A stretch of DNA of 64,000 bases, taken from NCBI GenBank assembly GCA_963821525.1, contig CAWGED010000014.1, forward strand, positions 1-64,000, given 5' to 3'. This DNA comes from an uncultured Gemmatimonadales bacterium. Its GTDB lineage: Bacteria; Gemmatimonadota; Gemmatimonadetes; Gemmatimonadales; GWC2-71-9. Below the pieces are notes generated by a model. The model was not told the DNA's origin. It made no database searches and saw only the letters and a list, made by a program, of their open reading frames with translations. Both the position numbers and the translations under genes were made by a program. This document shows positions 218-6,598 of the stretch, in pieces. The number at the start of each line of letters is the position of its first letter. Positions within the stretch are counted from its first letter, which is position 1.

Positions 218-2005
218 TCATTTCTGGTTCCCCACGAAGATGGCGCCGTTGAGTTCCCCCGCGTCGGTGGTCAGCGGCGCATAGTGCGTCTGGTAGTTGC
301 GACCGAAGATCGTGGCTTCACCGACGTACGAGCGCTTCTGCATCAACGCCTGATAGCTGGGGTGCCCGCGATCGAGCGTGGTATTGACGGCGGACTTGCC
401 CTCAGAGGTCAGCAGGGTGGTCTGCACCCGGATGAAGTCCTGGCCGTTGAAGCCGAAGATCGTCACCGTCCTCATCCGGTTGCGGGCATTGATGACGTAG
501 ATGGTCATCATGATGCTCACCGCGAGCGCGACCACGAAGACACCCGAGAAGATGTGCAGCACCGTCTCGTAGGATCCGGTGGCCTGGTACAGCCGAGCGA
601 CGATCTGCGGCCCGAAGACCCCGGCCATGGCCCAGGAGCTGAGCACGTAGCCGTGGATCGCGCCCAATTCTTTCGTCCCGAACAGGTCGCCGATGTACGC
701 CGGCAGCGTCGCGAAGCCGCCGCCGTAGAAGGTCAGGATCATGTACAGCACCACCTGGAACATCACGATGCTGGTGATGCTGGGCAGGAACCAGAAGGCC
801 ACGATCTGGACCGCGAAGAACAGGGTGTAGGTGTTGGCCCGGCCCAGGTAGTCGGAGAAGGACGCCCACCCGAGGCGGCCCAGGCCGTTGAAGATGGACA
901 TCAGGCCCACCACGCCGGCGGCTTGGGCGGGGGTGAGGCCGATGCTCTCCTGGGCCAGCGGGGAGGCGGTGTAGATGATGCCGATGCCGCAGGAGATGTT
1001 GATGAACATCATCACCCACAGGCCGTAGAACGGCGCTCTTCTGATCGCCGCATTCGCGGCCATCTGCGTGAGATCCGGAATCACCTTCTTCTCCCCAGCG
1101 TCGACGGCGGCCTTCATGCTGGCCGGCATCCACCCCTGGGGCGGTCGCGCGATGTAGCTGGCGGCGCCGAACATGATCACCAGGTACGCCAGGCCCGCGA
1201 ACAGGAAGGCGGCGGAGATGCCCGACGCGACGGCGCTCCTCAACTTCGGCGAGTCCTTGATCTCCCAGAATGGCGCCAGCGCGCTGTTGCTGAGCGCGGC
1301 GTTAAGCTCCACCAGCGTGGGCTCGGCATCCTGGGCCAGCTTCGCCGGCAGCATGCCCAGAACCTCTTCGTTCCGGCCGGCCCTGACCGCGTCGAACAGC
1401 TGGTCGATGCCGTAGCCAGCGGTGGCCTCGTCCTTGACGTGGATGGCCTTCAGGAGATTTCGGCTCGAACTGAGGTTGGAAATCCCGGCCCGAAAGTCGG
1501 CCTCGGCCATCCCCAGCTTGCTGGCCGCGACCTCCGACATGATGTAGTTGTAGACCGGCCCGCCGATGGCAGCGCCGAAACCGAATCCCATGATCGCCAG
1601 CCCAGTCGCCATGCCGCGCCGGTCCGGGAACCACTTCACCAGGGTCGAGACCGGCGTGATGTAGCCGATGCCGAGCCCGATCCCGCCCAGCACCCCGTAG
1701 CCCAGCCAGAGAATCTCGATGACGCCGAGCTTCGCCCCCAGGCTGGCCACGAGGAGGCCGCTGCCCCAGAAGACCGCCGCAACCATGCCCGACTTGCGGG
1801 GACCGTTCCGCTCGACGAACCGTCCCATCACCGCGGCGGACATGCCGAGAAAGAAGATAGCAAGGCTGAAGGTGATGGAAACGTCGCTCTTGGCCCAGCC
1901 GAAGGCGTTTTCGAGCGGCAGGTTGAAGACGCTCCAGGCGTACACCGACCCGATGGAGATATGAATCCCGACGGCCGAGGCGGCGATCAACCAGCGGTTC
2001 TTCAT
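218..2005 (-). CDS. OFA (oxalate:formate antiporter/YhjX-like) family MFS transporter with a ~105-aa loop insertion and a C-terminal Cache_3-Cache_2-like domain
   Basis: OFA motifs NRWLIAASAVGIHISIGSVYAWSVF, GYITPVSTLVKWFPDRRGMATG and YGGGFATLPAYIGDLFG. The C-terminal TIF..DFIRVQTT..G..A..TTLD..HP.Y..L...Y.GEATIFGRNY.T.Y.P....GAIFVG is a Cache pattern. GGAGG RBS precedes the ATG at 2005. Confidence 0.9.
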   Translation of the reverse strand: MKNRWLIAASAVGIHISIGSVYAWSVFNLPLENAFGWAKSDVSITFSLAIFFLGMSAAVMGRFVERNGPRKSGMVAAVFWGSGLLVASLGAKLGVIEILWLGYGVLGGIGLGIGYITPVSTLVKWFPDRRGMATGLAIMGFGFGAAIGGPVYNYIMSEVAASKLGMAEADFRAGISNLSSSRNLLKAIHVKDEATAGYGIDQLFDAVRAGRNEEVLGMLPAKLAQDAEPTLVELNAALSNSALAPFWEIKDSPKLRSAVASGISAAFLFAGLAYLVIMFGAASYIARPPQGWMPASMKAAVDAGEKKVIPDLTQMAANAAIRRAPFYGLWVMMFINISCGIGIIYTASPLAQESIGLTPAQAAGVVGLMSIFNGLGRLGWASFSDYLGRANTYTLFFAVQIVAFWFLPSITSIVMFQVVLYMILTFYGGGFATLPAYIGDLFGTKELGAIHGYVLSSWAMAGVFGPQIVARLYQATGSYETVLHIFSGVFVVALAVSIMMTIYVINARNRMRTVTIFGFNGQDFIRVQTTLLTSEGKSAVNTTLDRGHPSYQALMQKRSYVGEATIFGRNYQTHYAPLTTDAGELNGAIFVGNQK

Positions 2006-2504
2006 GTCAGCCTCCATTCATGCCAGATCATGGCTGTGCCAAGGTTCAGGCCCTGATGGGCAGGGTGCCACATCGGGAGGCTGCGATCAAATAGACTGCT
2101 GCCGTCGCCCGTAGCCGGGCTGCAGTCGGATGAGGATGGGTCGGGACCGGTACAGCAGCGCGCCCGGAAGCCGGCGCGTCTTGGAGTGGTTCACTGCAAG
2201 GCAGGGATGAACATAAGGGAATCCCACTGGTTGGATAGGGGGGCGCGTGCGTGGCCATCGTGGGCGCGCATCAGCGATGGCGCTCCCAAGCAACTCGCAG
2301 CATACGAATCTCGTGGGAGACATCGGCGGCGGCGTTAAGACGCTGTGAATCTCCGATCATCATAGAGACCTGCTGGTCACATACATGTTCACACCAATGT
2401 GACCCCGTGATTAGAGGACCTCTGAATAGCTGTCGGGCGTGGCGCTAGTCGACGCCATCCTCCGGCGGTGGCCTGCGAGGCGGAAACGAATCAGTGATTG
2501 TGGC

Positions 2505-2680
2505 GGGGCGCACGACCTTCGACGCTCCGCTGTGCGCAACCTGGTCAACGCTGGCGTCCCTGAGTTGACAGCCATGAAGCTGACTGGCGACAAGACCCGT
2601 GCGGTGTTCGATCGTACAACATCGTCTCGCCGGCAGAGACCGCGGGGGCGGTGGCGAAGCTCGCGAGTTATCTTGAGGCG
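2505..2680 (+). pseudogene. Tyrosine recombinase/integrase C-terminal relic
   Basis: [35 protein letters not shown]; a 1-nt shift restores FDRYNIV. The expected TGHK reads TGDK, and there is no N-terminal part. Confidence 0.85.
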
Positions 2681-2782: not shown

Positions 2783-2868
2783 GCTCGGGTGGCGAAACTG
2801 GCAAACGCATGGGACTTAAAATCCCAAGAGGCGAAATCCTCATGTGGGTTCGATCCCCACCCCGAGCA
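2783..2868 (+). tRNA. tRNA-Leu (anticodon TAA)
   Basis: GCTCGGG/CCCGAGC acceptor stem, D arm with GGCAAACGC, anticodon arm GGGA-CTTAAAA-TCCC, long variable arm, T loop GTTCGAT; CCA not encoded. Confidence 0.95.
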
Positions 2869-2952: not shown

Positions 2953-3013
2953 TCCGCCGGTCCGCCCTGTCCGCCCTGTCCGCCCTGTCCGCCTTGTCCG
3001 CCGCTTTCGCCCC
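2953..3013. repeat. 9-mer tandem array (TCCGCCCTG)n
   Basis: tccgccgg, tccgccctg x3, tccgccttg, tccgccgct. Confidence 0.9.
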
Positions 3014-3163: not shown

Positions 3164-3928
3164 ATGCGCAAACTAGCCATGATGGCCATGTGGCTCCTGC
3201 TCGTGACCGGGCGTTCAGGCCTGGCACAGGACTCGACCACGGCCGTGGACTCCCAGGCAGTCCGCATGATGCCCATGATGTGGATGCATCTCGACTCCGT
3301 AGCCACCTGGTCGCCCGAACAGATAAAGAAAATGATGCCGCAACACCAGCAGATGGTGACCCGGATGATGCAGAGTGGGCCGGGACACATGATGGGCCCG
3401 GGAATGATGGGTGGCCCCGGCATGATGGGGACGAGTCCCTATGTGACGGCTCTACGCGATTCGGTGGAACGTGATCTCGCCGCTCTTCCGGGCCTCTCTG
3501 GAAATGAGCTCAAGTCCCGGATGCAGGGCCACGTGGATCGGCTGCGCCGTCTGATGGTCGTGCGGATGGGGATGATGGGCGGCGGAGGCTGGGCGGGTAT
3601 GCCCGGCGGATGTGTGATGGTCGATTCGCTCGGACACATGTCATCGGCTCAGCGACAGCGGATCTGGCCGATGCACGCGCGGATGTCGGGGCAGATGATG
3701 GATGCGATGATGGCAAACATGCAGGCCGTGGGAACCCCACCCGATTCGGCCTGGCTGGCGCTCCGCGACTCAGTACGCGCCGACATGACGCAGTTGCCCC
3801 AGCTCCAGGGCGATAGCCTGCGTACCCTCATGCTGGCGCATCAAGGGCGGATGCAGCGCTTGATGGGCCAGCATGTGCAGCGGATGGGGATGCACATGGG
3901 ACCGATGAGGATGGCTTGCCCGATGTAG
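3164..3928 (+). CDS. Met/His-rich secreted protein with a two-fold internal repeat (putative soft-metal-binding protein)
   Basis: GAGGA RBS; signal peptide MRKLAMMAMWLLLVTGRSGLA|Q; about 45 Met in 254 aa; repeated ALRDSV..D...LP.L.G..L...M..H..R..RLM. Confidence 0.8.
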   Translation: MRKLAMMAMWLLLVTGRSGLAQDSTTAVDSQAVRMMPMMWMHLDSVATWSPEQIKKMMPQHQQMVTRMMQSGPGHMMGPGMMGGPGMMGTSPYVTALRDSVERDLAALPGLSGNELKSRMQGHVDRLRRLMVVRMGMMGGGGWAGMPGGCVMVDSLGHMSSAQRQRIWPMHARMSGQMMDAMMANMQAVGTPPDSAWLALRDSVRADMTQLPQLQGDSLRTLMLAHQGRMQRLMGQHVQRMGMHMGPMRMACPM

Positions 3929-3962
3929 CCTAAAGGGAATTTCGCGGCTGAGGCCGAATTCA

Positions 3963-4070
3963 GCGGCTGAAGCCGCGACTCGCCCGGTCCGCCGGGTCCG
4001 TCCGATTCGCCCGTCCGCCGATCTGCCTTGTCCGCCGGTCCGCCTTGTCCGCCCTGACCGTCCTGTTCGC
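3963..4070. repeat. REP-like hairpin (GCGGC-TGAA-GCCGC-GACTC) followed by a degenerate (TCCGCC-NNN)n array
   Basis: Same unit and orientation as 2881-3013. Confidence 0.8.
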
Positions 4071-4074
4071 AGCC

Positions 4075-4516
4075 TTAAGTCTTGTCTCTCACCTCCCACA
4101 GCACATTCAGAATCACCCACCGACCGTTCCACTTCACCAGGTGCAGGTAGTCGATCCAGCCCGGACATGTCGACCCGCACGCTCGCGGCCTTCTGAAAGA
4201 CGTCGAGGATCTTCACATCCTTGCGCTGCTTGTCGACCGGGGTGGACTTGCCGCCGCCTGAGCGTGCGCCGTGGATCAGCTCCGTCGCCCCCATGCTGCG
4301 GATCCAGGTGGCCCCGGTCGAGTCACTGAACTGGACCCGCTTCGCCAGCTCCGGATGGAGTGCCCGCGCCATGCGATCGCCGTCGGCGTTATACCAGCCT
4401 TCGGCGTAGTCCAACGCGGCAGCTCGAATGCCCGCGGTATCCGCTGCCGTCTGCGCGGCGAGCGGGGTGGCGAGGAGCGGGACAGCGGCGAGAACGCCGA
4501 GCAAGTGTCGTTTCAT
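4075..4516 (-). CDS. Secreted NTF2-like (Lumazine_bd_2-type) protein; frameshift near 4160
   Basis: Signal peptide; AALDYAEGWYNADGDRMARALHPELAKR; the shifted frame gives WIDYLHLVKWNGRWVILNVLWE. Confidence 0.8.
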
Positions 4517-4553
4517 CTCCGGATCTCCAGGTTGTTCGACGTTTTCAGGCATT

Positions 4554-4738: not shown

Positions 4739-5503
4739 TCAGCGAAGCAGCGACCGCAATCGCTCGCTGTGGGATCGGCTGGAGGTGAAGCGGGTGCCGT
4801 CCTTCATGGTCACGACGTACTCGCCGTGGAAGTACGGCTCGAGGGATCCGATTCGGTCCACGTTCACGATCACCGAACGGTGGATGCGGACGAAGGTGGT
4901 GGGGTCGAGGCGCGCCTCCAGCGATTTCATGGTCTCCCGCACCAGGTGCGTCTTGCCCCGGGCATGGAGCCGGGCGTAGTTCCCCGCGGCATCGATCCAG
5001 TCCACCTCCTCCGCCCGCACGAAGAACAGCCGCTCACCTTCCCGAACCACGATGCGCACCGGTGCCGGCCGTTCCGCCCGAAGCTGGGCCAACAACGCGC
5101 GCAGCTCCGGTTCTGCTTCCGCCGTTCCCCGGCGATCGAGCCGTTCCCGTACTCGGTGGAGCGCCGCCTGGAATCGTTCCGGTTCGAGCGGCTTCAACAG
5201 ATAGTCCACCGCATTCACTTCGAACGCCTTGAAGGCGTATTCGTCGTATGCGGTGACAAAGACAATCGCGGGGAGGGAATCGGCCGGGAGGGACTGCAGC
5301 ACCGCGAACCCGTCCATCTCGGGCATCTGGACGTCGAGAAAGAGGAGATCTGGAGAGTGGATCGTGATGGCTTCGAGCGCCGCCGCCCCATCGCCGCACT
5401 CGGCGACCAGCTCGAACGCCTGATCTCCCGCGAGGAGACTGCGGATCCTCTCGCGAGCCAGCGGCTCGTCGTCCACCACTACGGCGCGCATGGCCGTCAT
5501 CAC
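4739..5503 (-). CDS. LytTR-family response regulator
   Basis: REC ([22 protein letters not shown]) plus LytTR ([11 protein letters not shown]). Confidence 0.95.
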
Positions 5504-6598
5504 GGTCGCCGGAGCGGGACGACCAGATCCACTCGCAGACCGCCTCCCGGTGCTGGGCTTAGCGTGAGCGCCGCTCGCTCTCCGTAGAGCGCGGCCAGTC
5601 GGCGCCGGGTGTTGCCGAGTCCGATTCCTTCGACCGGGAAATCATTGGAGTGGTCGAGTCCGGAGCCGTCATCGGTAACGCTCAGCTCGAGGTGATCGTC
5701 GTTTCTGGCGGCCGCGATCGTGATTCGCCCTGCTCCCGCGCGTCGCGCGATGCCGTGCTCGATCGCGTTCTCGACCAGAGGCTGGAGCACGAAATGAGGC
5801 ACGAAGACCTCTTCGGCTCCCGGCCCGATCATCTTCTCCACCGTGAGCCGGTCCTGGAAGCGGACCTGCTGGATTGCCACATAGTTGTCGAGCGTCTCCA
5901 GCTCGTCGCCCAGTGGAACCTCCTGGCTCTCCGCTCGACGCAACGTACGTCGCAGGAGGTCGCTCAGCCGAGCCAGCATCCGATCTGCCGCATCGGGATC
6001 GCGATGCAGGAGGGTCGAGATTCCCTGCAGCGTGTTGAACAGAAAATGGGGATGCAGCTGCGCGCCCAGCGCCTCGAGTCTCGCCTCGGCGAGCTGGCCC
6101 TGGAGCAGGGCCGCCTCCTTCTCCCGCTCGCGATAGCGGTAGTAGTAGACAATCGCGTGTATCACTCCGATCAGCGCCCAGAATACCATGCTTTCGATGA
6201 CGAAGCTCTGGCTCACCATCTCGCGGAGCGATGGCATGTGAGACTGGGGCAACAGCAGCTTGATCATCTTGAGGAACAGGGCGTACTTGAGGATCATACA
6301 GAGCGAGACTGAGTACCAGCCAGAGCGGGACAGTCGGCGTCCACCCGCTGCGCTCGATGGGCCACCGCCGCGCCATCCAGATGAAGAGCGGGGTGAAGAT
6401 GGCGCAGGTGTACCAGTCGAGGAGCCGAGAAGTGAGGAGCCACCGCCACTCGATCGGCCGGCCGATCTGTCGGAAGGTGAGCGCCGCCCCGCCCACGCTG
6501 AGCAGCGCCAGCGCGGTCCAGATCGCCCAGATGATGAGGACGCTGCTCCAACTCCAGCGGAGCAGGGGAGGGGTCGAGGCCGGCGGTGCTGGAGGCAT
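5500..6598 (-). CDS. LytS-type membrane sensor histidine kinase; frameshift near 6297
   Basis: [28 protein letters not shown] and GIGLGN; N-terminal transmembrane segments lie in the adjacent frame. Confidence 0.9.

Follow-up and report, generated by a model that had tools for sequence, protein, structure and literature searches.

A transporter of the major facilitator superfamily fused in frame to a Cache-derived PAS core with an intact carboxylate pocket

Introduction

Two bacterial carboxylate transporters of the major facilitator superfamily (MFS) provide the closest described systems for the protein analysed here. SfMCT of Syntrophobacter fumaroxidans, a homologue of the SLC16 family, transports L-lactate together with a proton (PDB entries 6G9X and 6HCL; PMC6573034), and OxlT of Oxalobacter formigenes exchanges oxalate for formate (PDB entries 8HPJ and 8HPK; PMC10070484); nearly all transporters of the OFA family are uncharacterised (PMC10070484). 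The protein studied here is encoded on the minus strand of a 64,000-nucleotide stretch of DNA (the window; contig CAWGED010000014.1, assembly GCA_963821525.1) from an uncultured Gemmatimonadales bacterium, and joins an MFS transporter to a C-terminal core derived from a Cache domain.

Domains of the Cache_3-Cache_2/sCache formate family occur almost exclusively in chemoreceptors, and some members are cytoplasmic (PMC11804620). The sCache structures 8PY0 and 8PY1 contain bound formate, and the formate pocket comprises Thr100, Arg111, Tyr160 and Phe175 in receptor R6, and Arg142, Thr145 and Thr158 in PacF (PMC11804620). Pseudomonas Cache_3-Cache_2 receptors with an R/F/Y/F/T set of residues respond to lactate, propionate and pyruvate and barely to formate (bioRxiv 10.64898/2026.04.10.717710). 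A long N-terminal helix is the key innovation of Cache over PAS domains (PMC4822843), and more than 90% of Cache domains are fused to signalling modules (2026 preprint).

MFS transporters with fused C-terminal CBS, cNBD, PAS or UspA domains are known, and many transporter-fused domains have no assigned function (PMC10710835). The accessible text of that review contains no occurrence of "Cache", and "transporter" and "MFS" are absent from that of PMC11804620, the accessible dataset of which (long cells as their first 400 characters) contains neither "transporter" nor a match to KNRW, AVNTKL or AINTKL. The literature searched held no account of an MFS-Cache fusion; the MFS-fusion survey of Willson et al. 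2019 and the preprint supplements lie outside that coverage. As MFS transporters with fused regulatory domains have already been surveyed, the kind is known, while the Cache version is apparently undescribed.

Results

Reading frame and junction

The frame translates unbroken into 595 residues plus a stop (Table 1). An alternative in-frame ATG at position 2017 would give 599 residues; the ATG at 2005 has GGAGG 5 nucleotides before it. Pfam recognises MFS_1 (E 2.7e-25) and, at residues 513-593, Cache_3-Cache_2 (PF17201; E 2.3e-21, 76.8 bits against a gathering cut-off of 27.7), the latter match spanning model positions 101-182 of 299; sCache_3_3 (PF17202) is matched at residues 512-594 (65.7 against 28.8 bits). 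Assembled contigs from all three DNA runs, belonging to three studies, span the MFS-Cache junction (198-1636, 196-752 and 196-1615) with no gaps. The homologue alignment has 121 rows, the query and its best 120 hits, one of them the query's own cluster, with full-length hits 69-99% identical. The Cache core is present in 109 rows, query included, most of them exactly 595 residues long, and Cache and a helical insert occur together in 108. The other 12 rows comprise seven that have the insert without a whole Cache, some of them fragments or garbled, and five plain transporters of 414-425 residues. The junction has a constant length across most homologues. In the AlphaFold model of the whole protein (mean predicted local distance difference test score, pLDDT, 72.6; Cache blocks 67-94), the helix of the last transmembrane segment (TM12, residues 479-509) passes directly into five strands at 512-594.

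The MFS-Cache fusion is confirmed as a genuine single frame, as the original prediction had it, together with its assignment of the tail of about 85 residues to PF17201. An assembly artefact merging two genes is refuted. Other genes of the window do appear frameshifted: at 3770-4552 and 4739-6598 lie a lumazine-binding-like gene and a LytTR regulator with a histidine kinase, and the first gene and the kinase both look interrupted, so the assembly has indels elsewhere, not in the fused gene. The junction itself, however, is crossed by the gap-free contigs of three studies and recurs in more than 100 homologous clusters.

A metatranscriptome run contained short pieces of relatives, one of them over the Cache part (206-330, 9 differences), which is not proof of transcription. 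A promoter scan gave no sigma-70-like site and two terminator-like sites, at chance level. An Atlas search with a full-length homologue returned generic MFS clusters only, all below 0.9.

Table 1. Features of the fused gene and its surroundings, in window coordinates
Feature	Position	Strand	Remarks
Whole gene: MFS transporter, outer helical insert and C-terminal Cache-derived PAS core	218..2005	-	595 residues (P0001)
Shine-Dalgarno-like GGAGG preceding the ATG at 2005	2011..2015	-	kept in 3/4 aligned upstream regions
MFS N-terminal part, TM1-TM5, residues 1-160; H15, Y22, Y115 (= SfMCT Y119), F141 (= SfMCT L145)	1526..2005	-	
All-helical insert of ~100 residues between TM5 and TM6, residues ~161-262	1220..1525	-	MFS topology puts it on the outer face; seen only in this family
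MFS TM6-TM12, residues 263-509; TM12 helix 479-509 ending in basic NARNRMR	479..1219	-	
R377 (= SfMCT R280 / OxlT R272)	875-877	-	
W458 (position of OxlT K355 / SfMCT C362)	632-634	-	
Cache_3-Cache_2-derived five-stranded PAS core without N-terminal helices, residues 511-595	221..475	-	pocket T515, F517, R526, T529, T542, Y575, F590
Upstream non-coding stretch accompanying the gene in close relatives	2006..2273	-	78-79% identity over ~270 nucleotides in L073, L002, L075
Degenerate integrase fragment (context)	2508..2597	+	PHROG 1 integrase, E 7.8e-4; no Pfam hit at E 0.01
tRNA-Leu(TAA), possible old integration site (context)	2783..2868	+	

The Cache core and its pocket

A gap-free alignment pairs the C-terminal 85 residues with chain residues 90-169 of 8PY0, which has formate bound (E 2.1e-14); 8PY1 is matched too (E 3.6e-10). 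From its Thr-Arg spacing, 8PY0 would be receptor R6. The pocket residues of R6 and PacF map onto Thr515, Arg526, Tyr575, Phe590, Thr529 and Thr542; Thr515 is kept in 108 of the 109 Cache-bearing rows and the other five in every one, whereas surface positions vary. For the Cache core, the median non-synonymous rate (dN) is 0.153 against a synonymous rate (dS) of 0.717 (197 pairs from 33 genes, here and below), indicating purifying selection; mean identity is 69%, and 85-91% for the MFS part. The pocket is intact and under purifying selection.

The R-x2-T...T spacing noticed in the original prediction is present (Arg526, Thr529, Thr542), and so is the kinship with the formate sensor PacF. Its reading of these residues as a formate motif held for the family and the residues, but they mark binders of short-chain monocarboxylates, not of formate alone (bioRxiv 10.64898/2026.04.10.717710). 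The pocket probably binds a short monocarboxylate, and formate in particular would be its ligand with somewhat better than even likelihood.

The long N-terminal helix of Cache domains is missing: the first matched positions are 101 of the 299 in the Pfam model and chain residue 90 in 8PY0. Only 2-3 residues follow the last strand, and the protein lacks an output domain. Conserved hydrophobic residues (Val514, Ile516, Ile525, Ala576, Ile589, Val591) line the back of the sheet. A homodimer prediction for the Cache core returned no answer (score 0.25 against a mark of 0.42), which is not evidence either way.

The transport site

Each half of the MFS part aligns colinearly with SfMCT and OxlT. A hydropathy scan gave 11 peaks, not 12; the count of 12 helices follows from the AlphaFold model and this colinearity. 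The NCBIfam model of SfMCT, NF049980, was passed with 383.8 bits (cut-off 320), and the OFA models TIGR04259 and TIGR00890 failed (126 against 335 and 185.7 against 374.85 bits). Arg377, Asn373, Tyr427 and Phe431, the equivalents of SfMCT Arg280, Asn276, Tyr331 and Phe335, are kept in all 109 Cache-bearing rows, and Tyr115, equivalent to SfMCT Tyr119, in the 105 rows that cover it. The lactate-shaping residues Leu145, Phe359 and Cys362 of SfMCT are replaced by Phe141, Leu455 and Trp458, and the hidden Markov model alignment places Thr, Ser or Ala at position 346 for the proton-site His250. Trp458 is invariant (109/109) where OxlT has its second essential basic residue, Lys355. With Arg377 kept and a tryptophan at the Lys355 position, the sequence indicates that an intact one-arginine monocarboxylate site of the SfMCT type is present, probably narrowed by Trp458 and Phe141. 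The oxalate/formate exchange suggested by the original prediction is not supported by these comparisons, which place the protein closer to SfMCT than to OxlT.

For the MFS halves, median dN is 0.05-0.07 and dS 0.48-0.64. A quick-method tree of 58 rows was calculated for the MFS core, leaving out the insert and Cache columns of rows that have the insert. The 18 rows of this kind group together in a single clade (support 100) within the unfused transporters, closest to marine gammaproteobacterial ones. The fused clade arose once. Two Cache-less rows are placed separately within the insert-bearing clade, and a further Cache-less copy lies in a 97% complete genome, with no Cache match within about 680 bases downstream.

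The genome to which the window belongs has a second OFA-like MFS gene, in two frames (possibly a frameshift or assembly error), just upstream of a pyrroloquinoline quinone (PQQ) dehydrogenase gene (L184:6772-8146; G000:C5:232837-234097).

The outer insert and the topology

The original prediction had missed the insert, which is lacking in the nearest unfused MFS transporters. Modelled alone, it is predicted with confidence (AlphaFold pLDDT 91.4). Standard MFS topology fixes which loops face outward and makes the C-terminus cytoplasmic. Together with the colinearity and the lack of a hydrophobic peak in insert or tail (maxima 0.83 and 0.63), it places the insert outside and the Cache core in the cytoplasm, in agreement with the earlier assignment of the latter. 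That assignment had also been called unusual. This holds for the transporter host; the location is less so, as cytoplasmic family members are already known in chemoreceptors (PMC11804620).

The insert has a median dN of 0.24 and dS of 0.60. No Pfam family was matched above E 0.05 in 11 members, no usable Atlas hit was obtained, and Foldseek gave nothing at E 0.001; the best VIA match (Z 5.1, root-mean-square deviation 4.7 over 81 residues) stands amid tied, unrelated helical rows. Sequence searches returned this family only (19 hits), plus 10 short hits, of which the five examined were its fragments. These searches show neither a new fold nor a lack of relatives. Among retrieved loci, 52 of the 57 insert-bearing frames also have the Cache core, the other five coming from broken or cut-off loci. 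The insert occurs in 2 of 300 other genomes of the phylum.

Stand-alone relatives and the origin of the Cache core

Scans that used an alignment of the C-terminal part as query revealed, besides fused genes, many short genes that consist of a leader and the same core and end at most four residues past it. These stand-alone proteins, of about 85-140 residues, combine a signal-peptide-like or lipoprotein-like leader with a helix-less core whose carboxylate pocket is intact, and lack an output domain (loci L113-L116, L119-L142, L144-L151, L164-L180 and L187-L191). In 44 of 47 distinct proteins a hydrophobic stretch lies within 45 residues upstream, according to a hydropathy test, not SignalP; leaderless examples are L178 and, from Methylophilaceae, P0127 and P0290. 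Equivalents of Arg526 and Tyr575 are kept in all 47. Among the best 150 of 2,759 hits (50%-representative library, E 0.001), the stand-alone proteins mostly outrank chemoreceptors. The 42 hits scanned with Pfam contained no second, independent transporter fusion, and the literature searched gave no description of the family. As the N-terminal helix, the innovation of Cache domains, is missing, the family looks like a reversion to PAS.

A careful Cache tree was calculated from 36 selected rows and 85 columns; a larger one exists as a quick version only. In the careful tree, the stand-alone and fused domains form one clade (100/98), within which the fused rows (100/96) nest beside L113, L114 and L116 (99/98). 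None of 200 bootstrap trees keeps the stand-alone rows together, and the approximately unbiased test does not reject a sister arrangement of fused and stand-alone domains (p 0.186). The most likely source of the Cache core is a stand-alone gene for an exported mini-Cache, in which the transporter took the place of the leader; in the simplest history, this would have moved an exported, helix-less core into the cytoplasm.

One stand-alone gene lies between ftr and mch, and another adjoins mtd. The first arrangement is seen in an Acidobacteriota bin (L168:4220-11145), where the mini-Cache gene sits inside a one-carbon (C1) cluster of the tetrahydromethanopterin (H4MPT) type, in the order amidohydrolase-family fhcA-like, GXGXG fhcC-like, ftr, mini-Cache, mch, RimK-like and CitG-like. 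Four proteins of about 280 residues (P0135, P0137, P0142, P0143) consist of a tandem pair of Cache_3-Cache_2 modules; no leader, membrane helix or output domain is obvious in them.

Links to formate metabolism

From 60 loci with unfused relatives, including those beside pfl and fdh genes, 55 proteins could be extracted, and His15, Tyr22, Tyr115, Phe141, Asn336, Asn373, Arg377, Tyr427, Phe431, His451, Leu455 and Trp458 are identical in all of them. In 17 of the 60 loci the transporter gene is co-oriented behind pflB-pflA, 16 times directly behind pflA, in Bacteroidota, Rhodothermota, Deinococcota and Bacillota (L026, L028-L030, L032-L034, L036, L038, L039, L043, L046, L053, L057, L059, L063, L067). 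Nine loci lie near a formate dehydrogenase alpha gene. No FNT/FocA channel was found in three of five pfl-linked genomes and four of five fusion genomes tested. The pfl-linked cases suggest an MFS subfamily that can stand in for FocA, but the loci were retrieved with patterns derived from the present protein, and the relatives are not independent. The literature searched contained no account of such pflBA-linked operons or of the subfamily.

Mch marks the H4MPT-linked oxidation of C1 compounds to formate. It is encoded by 12 of 16 genomes with the fusion and 12 of 18 with the stand-alone form, against a background of 16/36 in the host's family and 0/24 in two sister families; among relatives having the stand-alone form, only three of five encode it. 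Its co-occurrence with the fusion is suggestive, not a test. The window's genome, 81% complete, encodes fhcA, ftr, mch, an mtd-like gene and formate dehydrogenase; neither FNT nor oxc was found in it.

Distribution and genomic neighbourhood

The fusion is rare and patchy: none of 60 relatives has it, including the four in the genus, and five of the 60 have strong Cache matches in short frames of 131-202 residues, taken to be the stand-alone form. Hosts are found in Gemmatimonadota, in Alpha- and Gammaproteobacteria (Methylophaga, Methyloceanibacter) and in a deltaproteobacterial record; three bins carry it on short contigs and are possibly misassigned. Alphaproteobacterial copies have 45-46% GC within loci of 55-60%; the GC content of the present gene agrees with that of its window (64.6%), although an integrase fragment and a tRNA-Leu gene lie next to it. 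The gene has likely been transferred between phyla on its own. A plasmid search gave distant matches only, below 60% identity, the annotated ones being chemoreceptors.

The upstream non-coding stretch has no Rfam match. Just behind the tRNA-Leu gene, a 9-nucleotide tandem repeat in four copies occupies positions 2957-3001. In a near-identical locus (L072:8187-11471), a convergent gene for a 1,094-residue RND-type efflux protein, which we take to be CusA-like, lies just downstream, past the left end of the window. In Methylophaga sp. OBS4 (L153:2367-8297), fba, fbp, tpi and a gene of the phosphoribulokinase family lie immediately upstream of the fused gene, in the same orientation. In three alphaproteobacterial loci (L017:4196-7349, L019:10993-14827, L105:2594-3157), its surroundings include bestrophin-like (PF14023) genes and further small Cache-like proteins that stand alone. 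Truncated copies, with the 5' part swapped for unrelated sequence, occur at L098, L100, L101 and L157; the L157 bin also has an intact copy (L158).

Discussion

We tentatively favour a secondary transporter of a small monocarboxylate, with formate as the likeliest candidate, that acquired a cytoplasmic carboxylate-binding domain. The pocket of this domain would bind the acid being transported and adjust the transport cycle through TM12. The Cache core is rigidly continuous with TM12, so ligand binding would shift the transport cycle; such feedback control, which could act in either direction, seems to us evenly poised between likely and unlikely. Export might for example be accelerated, or uptake blocked, once formate from C1 oxidation or fermentation accumulates. 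Gating by the intracellular substrate is plausible. A wider history, rather doubtful at present, would make the mini-Caches free formate-binding modules of C1 oxidisers, one of which was captured by an MFS transporter that replaces FocA; the transporter would thereby be gated by its substrate from inside, and perhaps controlled from outside through the insert, the Cache domain having reverted to a PAS-like sensor.

Several observations weigh against formate transport under feedback control. The protein exceeds the NCBI cut-off for an "L-lactate MFS transporter", and one fused gene lies near a lactate permease. The C3-sensing Pseudomonas receptors (C3, three-carbon) keep the pocket residues, so the motif means a short monocarboxylate rather than formate alone (bioRxiv 10.64898/2026.04.10.717710). 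The residue proposed to separate formate from C3 binders is mixed (Ile in 63, Val in 31 and Leu in 15 of the 109 rows), and the formate binder 8PY0 carries Val there. All nine links to formate dehydrogenase come from Bacillaceae and are on the opposite strand, and no pfl or fdh gene is present within about 8 kb at the 10 closest unfused loci (65-69% identity). Mch is also present in 16 of 36 genomes of the host family and in all four of its genus, none of which has the fusion, and no neighbour recurs among fused loci except near-identical ones. Since the N-terminal Cache helices are missing, folding and binding are not to be assumed; and since relatives exist that have the insert without the Cache core (P0108, P0112, L197), the domain is dispensable.

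Some of these points would suit the same design built for C3 acids, an SfMCT-like transporter of L-lactate or pyruvate with a Cache core binding lactate, pyruvate or propionate. SfMCT provides both the passed family model and the best structural match, and C3-sensing receptors share the pocket. Pyruvate is the substrate of PFL, so the pflBA linkage also fits pyruvate uptake. Three pocket positions of SfMCT are changed, however, and His250 is not kept; a tighter site is expected from the invariant Trp and Phe, and the C1-pathway hosts, C1 neighbours and fdh links favour formate, which makes C3 acids unlikely. Automatic names in JGI records and the retained equivalents of OxlT Arg272 and Tyr35 would speak for an OxlT-type oxalate:formate antiporter equipped to sense formate. 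Such an antiporter is highly improbable given the tryptophan in place of Lys355, essential in OxlT, and the failure of both OFA models; oxalyl-CoA decarboxylase was not above cut-off in any of the five host genomes tested, in assemblies that are incomplete, the window's own included.

As a passenger or structural add-on, the Cache core would serve stability, oligomer contact or local buffering of ligand, with no influence on transport. Independent losses that leave the transporter intact fit this, as do its lower conservation and the lack of an output domain in its stand-alone ancestors; against this stand a pocket that is invariant while the surface varies, a junction length that does not change in most homologues, and the near-constant pairing of insert and Cache, the unpaired frames coming from damaged loci. 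We consider a passenger quite unlikely. A true transceptor, as the original prediction called it, would pass information on its ligand, or on the state of the transporter, to another signalling component: a kinase, a cyclase or a chemosensory array. Domains of this family are otherwise input domains of receptors (PMC11804620), the conserved hydrophobic back face of the sheet could dock a partner, and the host has five methyl-accepting chemotaxis protein genes. The transceptor nevertheless found no backing among the fused loci, which have no recurring or conserved signalling neighbour, in a search of the loci that leaves room for an unlinked partner; movement of the gene alone between phyla also argues against a dedicated signalling partner, and this role appears improbable.

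If the favoured reading, a monocarboxylate transporter tuned by its own substrate, is true, the protein would exemplify substrate-feedback control of a secondary carboxylate transporter, and would reveal a FocA-free MFS route for formate, useful for C1 biotechnology. It offers a clean test system, with a soluble domain of 85 residues, a known pocket, a single arginine and natural relatives with and without Cache, and the fused protein is available from a named isolate, Methylophaga sp. OBS4 (WP_266326247.1). It also extends the published series of "evolution by decreasing complexity", which runs from dCache to sCache, by a bare PAS core that was at first a stand-alone protein and later moved to the cytoplasm.

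With SfMCT, its best Foldseek match (E 1.8e-13), the protein shares the 12-helix MFS fold and the equivalents of Arg280, Asn276, Tyr119, Tyr331 and Phe335. It differs in the exchange of Leu145, Phe359 and Cys362 for Phe, Leu and Trp, in not keeping His250, and in adding an outer insert of about 100 residues and the C-terminal Cache core. OxlT belongs to the same superfamily branch and has the N-G-x-x-R motif in TM8 and the Tyr35 equivalent in common with it, but here there is no second basic residue, Trp352 corresponds to Leu455, Gln34 is without a counterpart, and the scores are below the OFA cut-offs.

The formate receptors PacF, Atu0526 and R3-R6 are of the same Pfam family, with the same five-stranded core, free of gaps, and the same ligand residues (PMC11804620); unlike the present protein, they have the long N-terminal helix, whereas here a transporter ends in the PAS core alone, and an output domain is lacking. 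The C3-acid chemoreceptors of Pseudomonas have the same pocket residues, within full periplasmic dCache domains (bioRxiv 10.64898/2026.04.10.717710). Like the known MFS fusions with CBS, cNBD, PAS or UspA domains, the protein carries a small ligand-binding domain on the MFS C-terminus, presumably for allosteric control as in trans-inhibited importers (PMC10710835). What sets it apart from them is that the added pocket seems to match the class of substrate transported, and that its lineage acquired a further domain on the outside.

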